Below are positions 2 through 8,139 of a stretch of DNA of 64,000 bases, piece by piece. The translations under genes and the position numbers were made by a program. The notes under the pieces were generated by a model, which did no database searches, was not told the origin of the DNA, and was given only the letters and a program-made list of their open reading frames with translations. The DNA is from a virus. Each line of letters starts with the position of its first letter. Within the stretch, counting starts at the first letter, position 1. The stretch lies in IMG/VR virus record IMGVR_UViG_3300025276_004419, positions 32,001-96,000 of that record; one strand, 5' to 3'.

Positions 2-460
2 AGAGGTCCAAATGGTAATCAAGGTCCTATAGGCCCAACAGCTCCTATTGGTGCTATAGGTCCACTAGGTCCACAAGGTCCTGAAGGTCTAATAGGTGCT
101 AGAGGTCCAAATGGTAATCAAGGTCCTATAGGCCCAACAGCTCCTATTGGTGCTATAGGTCCTAGAGGTTCTAGAGGTCCCGAAGGTTTAATAGGTCCTA
201 TAGGTCCTGGTGGTAATCAAGGTCCTATAGGTCCCATTGGTGCTATAGGTGCTAGAGGTCCTATTGGACCACAAGGTCCTGAGGGTTTAATAGGTCCTAT
301 AGGTCCTGGTGGTAATCAAGGTCCTATAGGTCCCATTGGTGCTATAGGTGCTAGAGGTCCTATTGGACCACAAGGTCCTGAGGGTTTAATAGGTCCTAGA
401 GGTCCTGGTGGTAACCAAGGTCCTATAGGACCTATTGGTGCTACAGGTCCTGAAGGTTTA
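2..460 (+). repeat. 99-nt (33-codon, 11-triad) tandem repeat units within the collagen region
   Basis: 185-283 is identical to 284-382, with a degenerate third copy from 383. The segment starting at 2 recurs at 101 with the same 99-nt period. Confidence 0.85.
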
Positions 461-1855
461 ATAGGTCCTAAAGGAAATACTGGAGCTCAAGGTCCACAAG
501 GTCCTGAAGGTCCTAGAGGTCCTATCGGAGCAACAGCCCCTATTGGTGCTATAGGTCCAGAGGGTTTAATAGGTCCTAAAGGTGCTAGAGGCCCAGAGGG
601 TCTCATAGGTCCTAGAGGTCCAATTGGTCCTAAAGGTAATACAGGTGCAATAGGTCCAAAAGGTCCTGAAGGTCCTATTGGACCAAAAGGTTCTAGAGGT
701 CCAATAGGTAACAAAGGCCCTATTGGTGCCACAGGCCCTATTGGTAGAGAAGGTTTAATAGGTAATAAAGGTGCTAAAGGTCAAAAAGGTCAACCTCGTG
801 ATTTTGATGGTCCTATAGGTCCTATTGGTCTTAAAGGACCCACTGGTGCTATTGGTGCTATTGGACCACAAGGTCCTATTGGTCCTGCCCGAAATAGCAG
901 TGCTGCTCCAATAGGTCCTGAAGGTCCTAGAGGTCCTATAGGTGCTACTGGAGCTAATGCTACACCAGCAGGAATTGCTGGTAACCCGGTTATAGATACT
1001 ATTGAAGATGGTGCTGGTTATACCTGGAATCTTGAATTTGTTGATGGATATCTTACAAAAGCGGATCCAGCTTATGAAAACTATCGTTATTATAGTAATG
1101 ATGGTGTTAATGATTATGTAACTGGTGCTTGGAGTGGCCAAACAGGATTAGTTCAAAATGATTGGAGTTTTAGCTTCTGGGTTAGAAATAATGAAGTTGA
1201 TAAAAATAATATGACATTTTGGGATTTTTGTGTTGACCCTGTAGGTTCAGCAAATAATAATAATAGAATATTTTTAAATTATGCTGCTAATTTTAATAGA
1301 TTAATATTTAGAGTTAGAACTAATTCTACAAACTTTGATTGTAATTATGCTTTAAATAGTGGAGGAAGTAATGGTACTATAACAGGTGTAACAAATACTA
1401 CTTCAGGATGGAGAGCAGCCCAAAGGGGTAATACAAATGCTGCAGGTTTTACTCACTTAGCAGGTACTTATGATGCTTCTGAAACAGTAGCTAGCAATGC
1501 ACTTAAATTATATTGGAATGGTTCCTCACTAACTACAGTTACTGTAAATTCAGGTACCCGTACTAATGGGACTTATGATAATTTGACATTATGTACCAAC
1601 ACATCAGGTGTTACAGGTACAGCAAATGCACATATAGACATGGATGAGTTTACTTGGTTTGATAAATCCTTAAGTTCAACAGAAGTAGGAGCCTTATACG
1701 CTAGTGGAGTAATTAAAGCAGCTAAAGAAAGTGGAAATACGGGTGTGGTAAATGCTATAGAGGAAGCAGCTAGTTTTGACCAAAATACCTCAGCTACTGT
1801 TAAAAATGCTAAATGGTCTGCTTCTATTATAGGAGGTACTACTCCAGCATACTAA
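2..1855 (+). CDS. Collagen-like tail/virion fibre protein with C-terminal LamG/concanavalin-like domain (5'-truncated by window edge)
   Basis: Frame 2 is open from base 2 to the TAA at 1853-1855 (translated by hand). About 100 Gly-X-Y triads span 5-960, followed by a linker and a LamG-like domain (WSFSFWVR, HLAGTYD, LKLYWNG, DMDEFTWFDKSLSSTEV). The track ORF 1211..1855 is only its in-frame C-terminal part. Confidence 0.9.
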   Translation, partial: RGPNGNQGPIGPTAPIGAIGPLGPQGPEGLIGARGPNGNQGPIGPTAPIGAIGPRGSRGPEGLIGPIGPGGNQGPIGPIGAIGARGPIGPQGPEGLIGPIGPGGNQGPIGPIGAIGARGPIGPQGPEGLIGPRGPGGNQGPIGPIGATGPEGLIGPKGNTGAQGPQGPEGPRGPIGATAPIGAIGPEGLIGPKGARGPEGLIGPRGPIGPKGNTGAIGPKGPEGPIGPKGSRGPIGNKGPIGATGPIGREGLIGNKGAKGQKGQPRDFDGPIGPIGLKGPTGAIGAIGPQGPIGPARNSSAAPIGPEGPRGPIGATGANATPAGIAGNPVIDTIEDGAGYTWNLEFVDGYLTKADPAYENYRYYSNDGVNDYVTGAWSGQTGLVQNDWSFSFWVRNNEVDKNNMTFWDFCVDPVGSANNNNRIFLNYAANFNRLIFRVRTNSTNFDCNYALNSGGSNGTITGVTNTTSGWRAAQRGNTNAAGFTHLAGTYDASETVASNALKLYWNGSSLTTVTVNSGTRTNGTYDNLTLCTNTSGVTGTANAHIDMDEFTWFDKSLSSTEVGALYASGVIKAAKESGNTGVVNAIEEAASFDQNTSATVKNAKWSASIIGGTTPAY

Positions 1856-1865
1856 AATTTAAACT

Positions 1866-5823: not shown

Positions 5824-5826
5824 TAA

Positions 5827-8139
5827 ATGAAAGAACCAAAAATTTTTGGACATGGTCCTTATATAGGAACAACAGGTTATAACAACCATACACGTGATTT
5901 TTTTAGGGGTCTATCTAACCACCACCCATTAAAATTTCGTAACTTTACTGTAGGTAGTAGTTGGGAAGGTATGAATAAAGAACCACATAATGGGGAATCT
6001 TACCTCCTTGATATAGATAAAAATATACTCCACCAACAAACATACTACACCTCAGAGGGTGATATGGTTGATGGTGAAATATACCCTAATAATGGAGAAA
6101 ATTTTAACCATAATGTAAATTTAATTTTGATGGAAACTAACCATCATTATTTTTTTCACAATTATAAAGGACCTAAAATAGCTTATAATGTTTGGGAATC
6201 TACGAAACAACCGGAAGCATTTTTTAATAAATTATTAGAATTTGATCAAATCTGGGTCCCATCACAATGGCAGGCAGATTGTACTATTGAACAAGGTGCT
6301 GATCCTGATAAAGTAAAAGTAGTCCCTGAGGGGGTAGATACAGAAACATTTTTTCCTGAAGATCCTCAAACTACATTAGACTATGTAGATGGTCGTTTTA
6401 AATTTATTCACTTTGGAAGGTGGGATTATAGAAAATCTACAAAAGAAATTATTAAAACTTTCTTAAAAGAATTTAAACCCGAAGAACCCGTAGATTTAAT
6501 TTTATCTATTGATAATATGTGGGGCAAAGATATGGATAGTTTTGAAACAACTGAAGAAAGACTAAAACATTATGGTTTTACGGACGAACGTTTAAAAATT
6601 AAACATTTTCCATCAAGAGAAGATTATATTACGTATTTAAAAAATGGTCATGTATTTTTGTCTTGTGCTCGTAGTGAAGGTTGGAATTTACCTTTAATTG
6701 AAGCCATGGCTTGTGGTACCCCATCTATATACTCAGCGGATTCAGCTCAAATGCAATTTGCATCAGGTAAGGGTCTACCAGTAAAAATATTAGGCGAAAA
6801 ACCTGCAACATCTAATGATTATGGTCGCTATACTATGAGTGATCTTCCAGGAAATTACCCAGAACCCGATTTCGAAGATTTAGCTATCGTAATGCGTGAT
6901 GCATTTGAAAATTATACTGACTATAAAAAACGTGCTATAGAAGAAGCAAAGTTGATTCATCGTGATTTTAATTGGAAAAATGTAGCTCAAATTGGTAGTA
7001 ATACTATTAAAGAATTTATGGATAATTATGTAGCCCCTGCTATTAAACCTAATACTATTAATGTTTCGTATTTAGAGGGTCCTAAAGTAGAAATTTTAGG
7101 GGACAACCCTGAAGAATATACAATAGAATTTATTAACGGGGATACTAATGAAGTAGTATTTAGTGATAAAATTACTAATGGAATGTGGACCACGTGTAAC
7201 AAAAAATATTATATTCCTTGGATTATAAAAGTTAATGGAGAGATAGTAAATAAATTTAGTTTAAAAGATAAAAAGGTTTTAATAGGTTTAGATTCAAATT
7301 CAATAGGAGACACTATAGCATGGACTCCATATGCTGTTGAATTTGCTAAAAAGCATAATTGTCAAGTCCTTTTATCTACCCACCATAACTCATGGTTTGA
7401 GGGCGTTGATGCTTATAAAGATATTAAATTTATTACCCCTGGGGATTTTGAACCTTGCCACGCTATGTATAGAATTGGATGGTTTAAAGATGATGAGGGT
7501 TTTTGGAAAGATTTTAATAAACACCCTAACCAAGTTAATTTATACCCATTACAACAAACTGCTGCTGATATTTTAGGTTTAGAATTTAAAGAATTAAATC
7601 ATGGGTTAGTATTTAATAAAAATGCAACCCCAATTAAGTCTAAATACGTAGTTATAGGACCAGAATCAACAGCAGGGTGTAAAGAGTGGCCTAGACAAAA
7701 TTGGAACGTTTTAGCTAAATTACTAAATCAACAAGGATATACAGTAATAACTTTAACTAAAAACCCACTTAAAATCCCAGGTACGATTAATGTTTACAAT
7801 AAACCTTTTGATGTTTTAGCTAATTATTTACTTAATGCTGATTTATTTATAGGTTTAAGCTCCGGATTATCTTGGTTTAATTGGGGGTTAGGTAAAAAAA
7901 CAGTAATGATGAATGGTTTTACCTCTAAAGAACATGAATTCCAAACTAAAGTTACTCGTATACGTGAGGAAAGTGTTTGTAATTCTTGTTGGGTTAATCC
8001 AAATTTTAAATTTGATGCTGGGGATTGGGATTGGTGTCCTATATGGAAAGGAACAGATAAACAGCATACGTGTATGAAATCCGTCTCACCAACTCAAGTT
8101 TTTAAACAAGTTAAACAAATTTTAAATAGTAAAAAATAA
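5827..8139 (+). CDS. GT4 glycosyltransferase fused to an Aah/TibC-like (autotransporter) O-heptosyltransferase domain
   Basis: N-half has GRWDYRK and ARSEGWNLPLIEAMACG (GT4 ExxxxxxxE). C-half has SIGDTIAWTPY, KEWP, FIGLSSGLSW and the four-Cys motif CNSCW...WCP...CMKS typical of TibC/Aah. Confidence 0.8.
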   Translation: MKEPKIFGHGPYIGTTGYNNHTRDFFRGLSNHHPLKFRNFTVGSSWEGMNKEPHNGESYLLDIDKNILHQQTYYTSEGDMVDGEIYPNNGENFNHNVNLILMETNHHYFFHNYKGPKIAYNVWESTKQPEAFFNKLLEFDQIWVPSQWQADCTIEQGADPDKVKVVPEGVDTETFFPEDPQTTLDYVDGRFKFIHFGRWDYRKSTKEIIKTFLKEFKPEEPVDLILSIDNMWGKDMDSFETTEERLKHYGFTDERLKIKHFPSREDYITYLKNGHVFLSCARSEGWNLPLIEAMACGTPSIYSADSAQMQFASGKGLPVKILGEKPATSNDYGRYTMSDLPGNYPEPDFEDLAIVMRDAFENYTDYKKRAIEEAKLIHRDFNWKNVAQIGSNTIKEFMDNYVAPAIKPNTINVSYLEGPKVEILGDNPEEYTIEFINGDTNEVVFSDKITNGMWTTCNKKYYIPWIIKVNGEIVNKFSLKDKKVLIGLDSNSIGDTIAWTPYAVEFAKKHNCQVLLSTHHNSWFEGVDAYKDIKFITPGDFEPCHAMYRIGWFKDDEGFWKDFNKHPNQVNLYPLQQTAADILGLEFKELNHGLVFNKNATPIKSKYVVIGPESTAGCKEWPRQNWNVLAKLLNQQGYTVITLTKNPLKIPGTINVYNKPFDVLANYLLNADLFIGLSSGLSWFNWGLGKKTVMMNGFTSKEHEFQTKVTRIREESVCNSCWVNPNFKFDAGDWDWCPIWKGTDKQHTCMKSVSPTQVFKQVKQILNSKK

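Follow-up and report, generated by a model that had tools for sequence, protein, structure and literature searches.

The stretch of DNA analysed here (the window, 64,000 nucleotides of IMG/VR record IMGVR_UViG_3300025276_004419) opens with a collagen-like fibre gene followed by predicted hydroxylases and glycosyltransferases, and it raises the question of whether a tailed phage can modify its own fibres much as animals modify collagen. Collagen lysine hydroxylation and glycosylation have so far been published only for animals and giant viruses. Our reading, to which we give a probability of about three in four on comparative sequence evidence, is that this uncultured tailed phage encodes a three-module modification system matched to the triplets of its own collagen-like fibres.

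The locus is densely packed, with eight ORFs on the + strand between positions 2 and 10196 and intergenic gaps of -1 to 49 nt. The window edge cuts the first of these, a collagen-like gene open at its 5' end (2-1855), so that 617 of its 1374 aa lie inside the window; the full gene spans G000:C1:29731-33855, equivalent to L003:15731-19855. It is followed by an 80-aa ORF of unknown function (1866-2108), a 776-aa three-domain enzyme (2125-4455), a 204-aa 2OG-Fe(II) oxygenase of P4H/PKHD type, referred to as oxy204 (4460-5074), a 249-aa glycosyltransferase of predicted GT-A fold (5074-5823), a 770-aa fusion of a GT4 domain with a TibC/Aah-type protein O-glycosyltransferase (5827-8139), a conserved 83-aa ORF (8156-8407), and the tail sheath gene (8457-10196; PF04984, PF17482). 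Profile matches place tube and baseplate hub genes downstream of the sheath, and no transcription terminator was found before the tube gene; the cassette sits within the late structural block. The ORF positions of the first-pass annotation were all borne out, and its domain calls were verified by profile, structure-database, and fold matches. Its placement of the cassette directly before the tail sheath needs correcting, since the 83-aa ORF intervenes. This ORF, which 58 of 80 loci carry, invariably stands ahead of the sheath gene and is 39% identical to gp042 of Flavobacterium phage immuto, itself directly before the immuto sheath gene; it is the downstream border of a variable fibre slot. 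The sheath protein shares 52.5% identity with that of immuto. The 80-aa ORF has no family match in Pfam, PHROG, or NCBIfam and is kept in the closest relatives only: L010 has an ORF 85% identical to it, and L004-L011 have ORFs of 78 aa in its place. A sugar-nucleotide cluster and a further PF13640 gene lie elsewhere in the genome, and a DUF1599 'nucleotide modification associated' gene lies beside sugar-nucleotide genes at 55-61 kb of the window.

A collagen gene does stand ahead of the enzymes, as had been noted; it is not a lone gene but the last of six, the other five being directly upstream of the window. Its collagen domain matches PF01391 (E 1.6e-36), its triplets are of the Gly-Pro-Ile type, Lys occurring 38 times at Y and never at X, and it ends in a non-collagen domain of ~260 aa, a tip for which a Pfam search returned no match. 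The six fibres are of two chemical types, two Gly-Pro-Ile-type and four Gly-Ser/Thr-Ser fibres further upstream. The collagen-like gene of the window matches PHROG tail-fibre families, and such generic names, together with the position in the structural module, suggest that the fibres are virion parts.

The 776-aa fusion combines three domains. Its N-terminal domain (aa 1-320; 2125-3084) is a retaining GT-B enzyme of family GT4 (PF00534, 31.8 bits; cut-off 26.4), with an EX7E motif (E260...E268) that is invariant in the family alignment. The second domain (aa 335-524; 3127-3696) reaches 23.6 bits for PF01755, slightly below the 24-bit cut-off, and matches human COLGALT1 (9u7j/9evj) over its catalytic GT-A domain with an E of about 2e-14; its acidic E432-E433-D434 is aligned opposite the E-D-D of COLGALT1, and most relatives of the fusion carry a precomputed PF01755 annotation. 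The third (aa 589-773; 3889-4443) matches the lysyl hydroxylase (LH) domain of human LH3/PLOD3 (E 5e-27) and that of mimivirus L230 (E 3e-23), compared with E 0.02 for prolyl hydroxylases. Its Y696, H707, D709, H756, and R766 align with Y814, H825, D827, H877, and R887 of L230, whose roles have been described (PMC5802723). Sixteen relatives (44-80% identity) all keep the Fe and 2OG ligands, and the LH active site is intact and invariant across the family. In each of lineages A-E a GT25 domain precedes LH, either fused to it or adjoining it, and lineage F has a GT4+LH fusion without a GT25 domain.

The remaining enzymes also have recognisable folds. Oxy204 matches PF13640 (58.5 bits), its H122, D124, H181, and R191 are invariant among relatives, and its fold is nearest to protein prolyl hydroxylases (TM 0.65-0.70). 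Its gene always lies between collagen and fusion or just 3' of the fusion. The 249-aa ORF has no sequence-family match; its AlphaFold model (pLDDT 90.4) is a GT-A glycosyltransferase fold, with Foldseek matches to glycogenin and BoGT6a (E 1e-5) and a VIA Z of 12.0 to alpha-1,3-GalT (GT6 enzymes) and 10.9 to COLGALT1. Relatives carry 2-4 tandem paralogues of this protein. In the 770-aa fusion, a second GT4 domain (aa about 100-390; 6124-6996) precedes the TibC/Aah-type domain (aa 411-765; 7057-8121), which scores 234.3 bits for TIGR04414 against an NCBIfam equivalog cut-off of 200 and matches the TibC structure 4rap (E 4e-34). The positions of TibC Asp110, Thr226, Lys230, and Trp305 and four iron-finger Cys are kept, and Leu stands at the position of Arg286. 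In TibC, Asp110 is catalytic, Thr226, Lys230, and Trp305 take part in sugar binding, and Arg286 binds heptose (PMC4358343); with Leu in place of Arg286, the donor sugar may be other than heptose.

Is the cassette tied to collagen in other phages? Relatives of the fusion are encoded on 164 IMG/VR contigs, and about 150 related phage loci formed the comparison set. A collagen-like gene precedes the fusion in all 55 loci having at least 1.5 kb of upstream sequence, within 2.5 kb in 54 of them, and the linkage spans at least six genomic contexts at 31-90% identity. The synteny that the first-pass annotation had proposed to look for is conserved among these loci, and the finding it had named as refuting, a cassette common in relatives lacking collagen, was not made. 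Among 39 bacterial GT4 loci used as controls, three have a collagen ORF; none was found elsewhere in the window or in the locus of immuto, the nearest cultured relative, which has the same genomic slot without collagens and without the cassette. The full fusion is absent from the 50,697 GenBank phage records searched, has no full-length homologue in 185,579 bacterial species genomes, and we found no published description of it in phages.

The composition of the collagens points to substrates. Their Lys residues lie almost exclusively at the position hydroxylated by PLOD enzymes, with 1542 at Y and 8 at X across six lineages or contexts, some of them without any Arg. Arg shows the same confinement to Y in lineage A (9:298, X:Y), so part of the Lys bias could reflect a preference for basic residues at Y. 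In two LH-free phages outside the family, collagen Lys is nearly absent or occurs only at X (25 X, 0 Y). Counted on non-redundant loci, a collagen with Y-position Lys occurs in 52 of 53 loci with LH and in 1 of 15 without it, and a collagen with X-position Pro occurs in 48 of 49 loci with oxy204 and in 1 of 19 without it; both exceptions are the same contig, which is cut inside the fusion gene. Conversely, oxy204 is found in 48 of 49 loci with X-Pro collagens and in 0 of 18 intact loci without them. Two loci (L139, L172) have oxy204 without LH, and their collagens are Pro-rich and Lys-free; lineages C and D have LH without oxy204, and theirs are Lys-rich without X-position Pro. Loci with only the TibC-type enzyme have Lys-free, Ser/Thr-rich collagens in 12 of 12 cases, although lineage-A loci with this enzyme sometimes have no Ser-rich collagen within 10 kb (e.g., L028). 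Mapped on the sheath tree, LH has switched between presence and absence at least five times, and in the independent pairs collagen type always shifts with LH and never opposite; with only 3-5 such pairs the test is underpowered (p 0.25 by sign test), and shared ancestry inflates the large contingency counts. These natural dissociations between enzymes and collagen composition suggest three enzyme-substrate modules. Hydroxylysine-linked glycans on the phage's own fibre, the earlier proposal, thus gain support from comparative genomics as a probable outcome. Its focus on the Lys of a single fibre is too narrow, as there are six fibres of two types, and X-position Pro and Ser/Thr are tracked too.

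From the domain identities, the intact catalytic residues, the conserved synteny, and the match between presence or absence of enzymes and triplet grammar, we infer the reactions, their order, the sugars, and the pairing of transferases with acceptors as follows. Modification would take place in the host cytoplasm, ahead of triple-helix folding. In the Lys module, the PLOD-type domain would act on the two Gly-Pro-Ile-type fibres, hydroxylating the Y-position Lys of Gly-X-Lys-Gly; the COLGALT1-like GT25 domain would add a first hexose to the new hydroxyl, and the N-terminal GT4 domain, perhaps also the GT-A protein, would lengthen the glycan. GT4 is a retaining family, like the animal second-step glucosyltransferase. 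In the Pro module, oxy204 would hydroxylate the X-position Pro of the same two fibres; we propose it as a collagen prolyl hydroxylase acting on Gly-Pro-Y from its PF13640 match, its fold neighbours, and its co-occurrence with X-position Pro. In the Ser module, the GT4-TibC-like fusion would O-glycosylate Ser of the four upstream Gly-Ser/Thr-Ser fibres.

Other assignments of the same enzymes have to be weighed. It is possible, though unlikely, that LH hydroxylates fibre Lys while the GT domains build Ser/Thr-linked glycans, the hydroxylysine being left free or otherwise used. The closest bacterial GT4 relatives, in MAG loci L092 and L101, lie directly upstream of Lys-free collagens whose Y position holds Thr or Gln, and no LH accompanies them; their place beside such Thr-rich collagens in two bacterial MAGs means that GT4 may glycosylate Ser/Thr instead of lengthening a hydroxylysine-linked sugar. 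The GT25-free fusion of lineage F fits such a division, as does the report that mimivirus collagen glucosylation was not confirmed in virions (PMC9614988). However, the GT25 domain aligns specifically with the catalytic portion of COLGALT1, which galactosylates hydroxylysine, and its association with LH in lineages A-E has the order of L230, the GT of which glycosylates hydroxylysine in vitro. About equally improbable is a role for oxy204 outside collagen, with a translation factor or other host protein, or else a small molecule, as its substrate. Its best folds include Pseudomonas PPHD, whose substrate is EF-Tu, together with PHD2 and the PKHD-type PiuC and Sbal_3634; 2OG oxygenases are common auxiliary genes of aquatic phages (PHROG 61), and the same genome has another PF13640 gene. 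Such a role is at odds with the fixed place of oxy204 beside collagen and fusion, and with its tracking of X-position Pro even in the LH-free L139 and L172 and its absence from the LH-containing, Pro-free lineages C and D.

It is very unlikely that the cassette alters LPS, capsule, or a surface protein of the host envelope, as it might for superinfection exclusion, with the collagens nearby by coincidence. GT4, GT9, and GT25 are typical bacterial LPS and capsule families, IMG labels relatives 'GR25 family glycosyltransferase involved in LPS biosynthesis', and the sugar-nucleotide cluster could be read in the same way. Yet PLOD LH and TibC/Aah are protein-modifying families, the genes sit inside a late structural block that is terminator-free up to the tube gene, collagen synteny is complete (55/55), gain and loss track the Lys, Pro, and Ser content of collagen, and 0 of 185,579 bacterial species genomes hold a full-length homologue. 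Least credible of all is hypermodification of phage DNA, in which a hydroxylated base is then glycosylated as in T-even and other phages. Pairs of 2OG oxygenase and glycosyltransferase are known for phage DNA, and the DUF1599 gene beside sugar-nucleotide genes would suit this role, but the LH domain carries LH-specific residues and matches collagen lysyl hydroxylases (E 1e-26) instead of TET/JBP-type enzymes, the TibC-type domain belongs to transferases that act on protein, and a DNA role leaves the location and the co-variation with collagen composition unexplained.

Modification of the phage's own fibres, the reading we prefer, has its closest known counterparts in mimivirus L230 and animal PLOD/COLGALT. 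L230 of Acanthamoeba polyphaga mimivirus (LH domain PDB 6ax6) likewise has a GLT25D1-like transferase ahead of its PLOD-type LH in one polypeptide, with identical Fe/2OG residues (H-x-D...H, R, Y), and mimivirus also has its own collagen-like proteins, in which Pro often occupies X and Lys occupies Y. The phage fusion differs in its additional N-terminal GT4 domain, its much shorter linker (776 versus 895 aa), its location in a bacterial cytoplasm and in a structural operon beside its presumed substrates, and the company of three further enzymes, of prolyl-hydroxylase, GT-A transferase, and TibC type. Activity has been demonstrated in vitro for L230 and is predicted for the phage fusion. Animal PLOD1-3/LH3 and COLGALT1 (GLT25D1) are the best solved-structure matches of its LH and GT25 domains. 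The X-Lys-Gly target grammar is common to both systems, and the predicted order is also that of animals, with hydroxylation, a first transferase of an inverting family, and then a second of a retaining family. The animal enzymes, however, are separate ER-lumenal proteins, while the phage enzyme lacks a signal peptide and has no ER to enter; in animals LH3 attaches the second sugar through its GT-A domain, a step that would fall to a GT4 GT-B domain in the phage; and animal collagens have Hyp at Y, whereas in the phage collagens Pro occupies X and Ile, Thr, Gln, or Lys occupies Y.

The Ser module resembles TibC/Aah (BAHT family, TIGR04414, PDB 4rap), which its domain matches over full length and above the equivalog cut-off, and BAHTs similarly hyperglycosylate Ser in repetitive proteins. 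Unlike TibC/Aah, it is fused to GT4, phage-encoded, and without an autotransporter nearby; its neighbours are Gly-Ser/Thr-Ser collagen-like fibres, and Leu replaces TibC Arg286. Bacillus anthracis BclA has glycosylated Gly-Pro-Thr repeats in a species that also has a P4H, and Riftia cuticle collagen has Hyp at X and galactosylated Thr at Y. In both, O-glycans stabilise or decorate repeats with X-position Pro and Y-position Thr, and the two provide a precedent for X-position hydroxyproline; to our knowledge, neither involves hydroxylysine chemistry and neither is viral. Mycobacteriophage glycosyltransferases reportedly decorate their own structural proteins in the host cytoplasm, where capsid and tail-tube proteins are said to be glycosylated directly, without hydroxylases, collagen repeats, or a hydroxylysine linkage. 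In the phages described here, each enzyme travels with the fibre sequence type that it would modify.

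The reading that this phage hydroxylates and glycosylates its own virion fibres is supported by strong comparative evidence, as distinct from biochemical proof. The parent IMG/VR virus record is 130 kb long with an estimated completeness of approximately 80%, and the window corresponds to its bases 32001-96000; GC content within the window is 31%-36%, the collagen gene excepted. All ORFs described in the first-pass annotation are present where it had placed them, on one strand and separated by gaps of -1 to 49 nt. The collagen gene truncated by the window edge encodes 1374 aa when read whole and comes last in a row of six collagen-like genes, the upstream ones having been read in positions 14001-34000 of the parent record (G000:C1, locus L003). 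Four of the encoded fibres (862, 849, 620, and 603 aa) are built of Gly-Ser/Thr-Ser triplets whose repeats contain neither Lys nor Pro. The remaining two (1074 and 1374 aa) belong to the Gly-Pro-Ile type and carry 16 and 38 Lys residues, respectively, all at position Y of the Gly-X-Y triplet. For none of the six fibres did the non-collagen end domains give a significant match in Pfam.

The nearest cultured phage is Flavobacterium phage vB_FspM_immuto (hereafter immuto), with 52.5% identity at the sheath protein, and the tube, baseplate hub, and later structural genes downstream of the sheath occur in the same order in both phages. The genes that flank the block are also common to immuto, namely a 324-aa protein (50% identity) and orf83, an 83-aa ORF located before the sheath at 8156..8407 (39% identity). 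Between these flanks, immuto harbors unrelated fibre genes, with no collagen and no modifying enzymes. Because immuto shares the flanks and differs between them, the collagens and the cassette occupy the variable fibre slot of this phage lineage. A scan for promoters and terminators gave counts at chance level. Within the first 11 kb, the sole strong hairpin resembling an intrinsic terminator (10754-10777, + strand; 10-bp stem followed by a T-run) lies just after the tube gene, which is consistent with a single late transcript extending from the fibres to the tube.

The 776-aa fusion (2125..4455, + strand) contains GT4, GT25, and lysyl hydroxylase (LH) domains. The LH domain (aa 589-773) matches human LH3/PLOD3 at E 5e-27 and L230, the bifunctional LH/GT of mimivirus, at 3e-23, and the next family, the prolyl 4-hydroxylases, appears only at E 0.02. 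The Fe- and 2OG-binding residues of L230 are H825, D827, H877, R887, and Y814 (PMC5802723). They correspond to H707, D709, H756, R766, and Y696 of the fusion, which are invariant in 16 relatives with 44%-80% identity. The dimer-lock residue Leu873 of L230, which is hydrophobic and needed for collagen activity, is replaced by Ile752, a nearly invariant position in the family. Similarity, the Fe(II) triad, and the 2OG Arg and Tyr all point to a PLOD-type LH, for which Lys hydroxylation is predicted. The GT25 domain (residues 335-524) matches the catalytic C-terminal GT-A domain of human COLGALT1 (residues about 336-503) at E about 2e-14, and its acidic motif E432-E433-D434 aligns with the COLGALT1 E-D-D, with E432 and D434 invariant in the family. 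The Pfam profile PF01755 scores 23.6 bits on the fusion, slightly below the 24-bit cut-off, and is recorded for most relatives. The domain is thus a predicted hydroxylysine glycosyltransferase of the COLGALT1 type, judged by a borderline Pfam score together with the catalytic-domain match. The donor sugar of COLGALT1 in animals is Gal and that of L230 is Glc (PMC9614988). The N-terminal third of the fusion is a GT4 domain (PF00534, 31.8 bits against a cut-off of 26.4) whose EX7E glutamates, E260 and E268, are invariant among relatives. The order of a GT25-like domain followed by LH is the same in L230 (architecture as given in PMC9614988), and mimivirus likewise encodes collagens with Lys at Y, as are found beside the phage fusion. 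The N-terminal GT4 domain, in contrast, is an addition relative to L230 and is new.

Three further enzymes follow the fusion. The 204-aa ORF (4460..5074) scores 58.5 bits with PF13640 against a cut-off of 27, and its residues H122, D124, H181, and R191 (the H-x-D...H motif and the basic 2OG ligand) are invariant in 24 homologues. Its structural model (pLDDT 83) has as top Foldseek matches PPHD from Pseudomonas (4iw3), PHD2, and the PKHD-type proteins PiuC and Sbal_3634, at TM scores of 0.64-0.70. The modelled fold is therefore nearest to protein prolyl hydroxylases, with a substrate class that the fold does not fix, since the PiuC-type neighbours have other or unknown substrates. The 249-aa ORF (5074..5823) matches no sequence family, and its structural model (pLDDT 90) has the fold of a GT-A glycosyltransferase; VIA Z scores are 12.0 against GT6 alpha-1,3-galactosyltransferases, 11.6 against BoGT6a, and 10.9 against the first COLGALT1 GT domain. 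Relatives carry two to four tandem paralogues of it.

The 770-aa ORF (5827..8139) combines a second, distantly related GT4 domain (PF00534, 34.7 bits against a cut-off of 26.4) with a full-length protein O-heptosyltransferase domain of the TibC/Aah type. The latter scores 234.3 bits with TIGR04414 against an equivalog cut-off of 200, covers model positions 12-374 of 374, and is matched by the TibC structure 4rap at E 4e-34. With residue roles read from PMC4358343, the 4rap alignment indicates that the catalytic base Asp110 and the iron-finger residues Cys339, 342, 358, and 370 are kept, and these are invariant in 14 phage homologues. Of the heptose-binding set, Thr226, Lys230, and Trp305 are kept, and Arg286 corresponds to Leu at a point where the alignment is gapped just upstream; because of this substitution, the donor sugar may differ. 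The usual substrate of a BAHT enzyme is an autotransporter with a self-associating beta-helix. None is present in the locus and the neighbours are collagen-like fibres, so we predict a BAHT-like enzyme with a different substrate. In two of the compared loci (L059:11720-14665 and L026:5811-8747), the GT4-TibC proteins are approximately 980 aa long, with an additional N-terminal region of approximately 215 aa that is absent from the 770-aa protein. Recent duplication as the origin of the two GT4 domains in the 776-aa and 770-aa proteins was considered and rejected, as they have only a 31-residue local match in common.

Gene maps of 80 loci (31%-90% identity) place the fusion in at least six genomic contexts (A-F). 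Context A, the arrangement of the window, runs from the collagens through the fusion, oxygenase, GT-A paralogues, and GT4-TibC to orf83 and the sheath. In context B the order is collagen, oxygenase, fusion, orf83, and sheath. Contexts C and D consist of a collagen followed by the fusion, with no 204-aa oxygenase and no sheath within 10 kb. Context E presents collagens followed by GT4 and GT25+LH as separate genes, and context F a collagen, the oxygenase, and a GT4+LH protein that lacks the GT25 domain. This shorter fusion measures 564 aa (L077:1686-3377 and L075:4104-5396); a separate GT2 glycosyltransferase lies between the oxygenase and the fusion in L074 and L075, and a T4 gp15-like sheath stabiliser is located between the cassette and the sheath gene in context F. 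In context C loci (L032-L043 and L062), a DUF6445 protein (E 2e-14) is encoded directly upstream of the fusion, as at L035:8299-10001, and a Laminin_G_3/ConA-like lectin ORF follows the 1789-aa collagen. The first-pass annotation had regarded the neighbouring collagen as the putative substrate, and this adjacency is conserved: a collagen-like gene precedes the fusion in all 55 loci that have at least 1.5 kb of upstream sequence, in 54 of them within 2.5 kb. As controls, collagen-like ORFs number three in 39 bacterial GT4 loci, zero in the immuto locus, and zero in the other 62 kb of the window.

The composition of the collagens follows the enzymes that accompany them. Across the six contexts, Lys occupies position X 8 times and position Y 1542 times, and nearly half of the Y positions in context C are Lys, with approximately half in its 1789-aa collagen. 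In context A, part of the bias could reflect a general preference for basic residues at Y, since Arg there is likewise limited to Y (X:Y 9:298); contexts B to F contain almost no Arg, yet Lys is still at Y. Nor does the placement appear to be general to phage collagens. A tblastn search with low-complexity masking gave four records of outside phage collagens, two of which were used as controls. Actinomycetia phage DSL-LC01 has 1 Lys in about 300 collagen triplets, and a 735-kb uncultured phage (LR756501.1, locus L206) has 25 collagen Lys residues, all at X; a search for LH in the whole records of both found no match, and because these two LH-free phages do not share the pattern, Lys at Y is not a general property of phage collagens. 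The latter phage encodes giant collagen-like ORFs of 814, 2830, and 3317 aa, of Gly-Thr/Ser-Ser type, at L206 1923-24458.

Loci fetched via the TibC domain, including close relatives that lack the fusion, allow enzymes and triplets to be compared where they dissociate. Among non-redundant loci that contain one or more collagen genes, in counts that are inflated by relatedness, a collagen with at least three Lys at Y occurs in 52 of 53 loci with LH and in 1 of 15 without, and a collagen with at least five Pro at X in 48 of 49 loci with the 204-aa oxygenase and 1 of 19 without. The one exception among enzyme-free loci is the same in both comparisons: L047, whose contig breaks off within the fusion gene. 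The two traits also separate from each other: L139 and L172, which encode the oxygenase and no LH, have Pro-rich, Lys-free collagens, and contexts C and D, which encode LH and no 204-aa oxygenase, have Lys-rich collagens in which Pro occurs at X once at most. In all 12 loci that carry TibC and neither oxygenase (for example L135, L175, L180, L187, L190, and L200), the collagens are Ser/Thr-rich and Lys-free. A sheath tree of 33 non-redundant loci requires at least five changes for LH and at least four for the oxygenase. In one example, two groups that it places side by side with 100% support differ in all four features: L013/L016/L018 possess LH, the oxygenase, Lys-collagens, and Pro-collagens, and L135/L175 possess none of them. 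Where pairs are phylogenetically independent, the collagen trait shifts in the same direction as the enzyme every time and never in the opposite one, with a sign test (p 0.25) that cannot reach significance because only three to five pairs exist.

The family is large. A GT25+LH query retrieves more than 300 clusters in a collection of 5.8 billion proteins, most of them 770-830 aa long with the same architecture and no informative name. Relatives of the fusion are encoded on 164 IMG/VR contigs, and at least 583 viral contigs carry the TibC-like domain. Among 50,697 GenBank phage records, megablast with the 10-kb region gave no match and tblastn with the fusion gave only partial matches with coverage of 37% or less. 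A pattern scan over 185,579 species genomes from bacteria and archaea returned only distant matches to the GT4 domain (22%-34% identity), without an LH or GT25 part, and thus no sign of a cellular origin or prophage copy of the fusion in this set, for which a pattern-seeded scan can miss distant forms. The closest bacterial relatives of the GT4 domain (25%-27% identity) are located in a Syntrophobacteraceae MAG (L092:5384-11902) and a Chlamydiota MAG (L101:10001-12745), immediately upstream of sizeable collagen-like genes that encode Thr or Gln at Y and hardly any Lys; LH is absent there. In bacteria too, this GT4 subfamily may act as a collagen glycosyltransferase, and because these relatives adjoin Lys-free collagens with Thr or Gln at Y, the GT4 domain of the fusion may act on Ser/Thr.

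In the mechanism that we propose, three modules would act upon unfolded chains in the host cytoplasm. In the first, the LH domain would hydroxylate Lys at Y, after which GT25 would attach the first hexose; the glycan might then be extended by GT4, which belongs to a retaining family as does the animal second-step enzyme, and perhaps also by the GT-A protein. In the second, the P4H-type oxygenase would hydroxylate Pro at X. Triple helices gain stability from hydroxyproline at X when Thr or Val occupies Y, as in the cuticle collagen of Riftia and model peptides. In the third, the GT4-TibC fusion would glycosylate Ser of the Gly-Ser-Ser fibres. The second and third modules, and the roles given to GT4 and GT-A, are less secure than the first. 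Possible functions include stabilisation of the helix, protease resistance, and shielding or receptor recognition. Elsewhere in the window, a sugar-nucleotide cluster (55012-61433, + strand) encodes a DUF1599 'nucleotide modification associated' protein, a 454-aa HAD phosphatase-nucleotidyltransferase fusion, a short DegT-like ORF, a PglD-like hexapeptide acetyltransferase, and a full DegT/DnrJ/EryC1 aminotransferase; as in mimivirus, it could provide the fibre glycans with an unusual amino sugar, or it could serve DNA modification. Outside the window, the parent record also encodes an NAD-dependent epimerase/dehydratase (PF01370, E 4e-31) as well as another 2OG-Fe(II) oxygenase of family PF13640 (G000:C1:106578-107180 and G000:C1:110432-110707).

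Freeman et al. reportedly described phage-encoded virion glycosylation in mycobacteriophages in 2023. A full-text literature search found no paper on a phage lysyl hydroxylase or on phage hydroxylysine glycosylation. L230 has been described as the first enzyme outside animals to glycosylate collagen (PMC9614988), and bacterial dioxygenases of other families (beta-hydroxylase as well as phytanoyl-CoA hydroxylase) were predicted by Iyer et al. in 2010 to modify collagen-like proteins (PMC2938197). A 2022 review considers most prokaryotic collagens to be neither hydroxylated nor glycosylated and sets phage collagens aside (PMC8968730). The cassette is akin to the collagen lysine modification of animals and mimivirus; what is new is the host realm, the fusions, and the two further modules. 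We hold it to be about an even chance that tailed phages of aquatic bacteria possess a modular collagen toolkit, in which the PLOD/COLGALT fusion with X-Lys-Gly, the P4H with Gly-Pro-Y, and the GT4-BAHT enzyme with Gly-Ser-Ser are each gained and lost together, yielding fibres with hydroxylysine- and Ser-linked glycans and hydroxyproline at X, and hence that hydroxylysine glycosylation is widespread in the prokaryotic virosphere.

From the natural pattern of presence and absence follow predictions that are clear and cheap to check in peptide assays. Being soluble and presumably cytoplasmic, the phage enzymes might be used as single-gene tools for producing hydroxylated and glycosylated recombinant collagen in bacteria; such compact enzymes from bacterial viruses may lend themselves to making recombinant collagen whose modifications resemble the native ones. 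Hydroxylysine and its Gal/Glc-Gal glycans count as hallmarks of animal collagen, and a large, conserved phage family with intact active sites and matching substrates adjoining would bring this chemistry to bacteriophages and the bacterial cytoplasm. If the reading is true, hydroxylysine glycosylation would not be an animal and giant-virus innovation, the finding would bear on the origin of the PLOD and COLGALT families, and the view of how prokaryotic and phage collagens are stabilised and decorated would be revised, with glycan-coated fibres forming a new layer of phage-host recognition.
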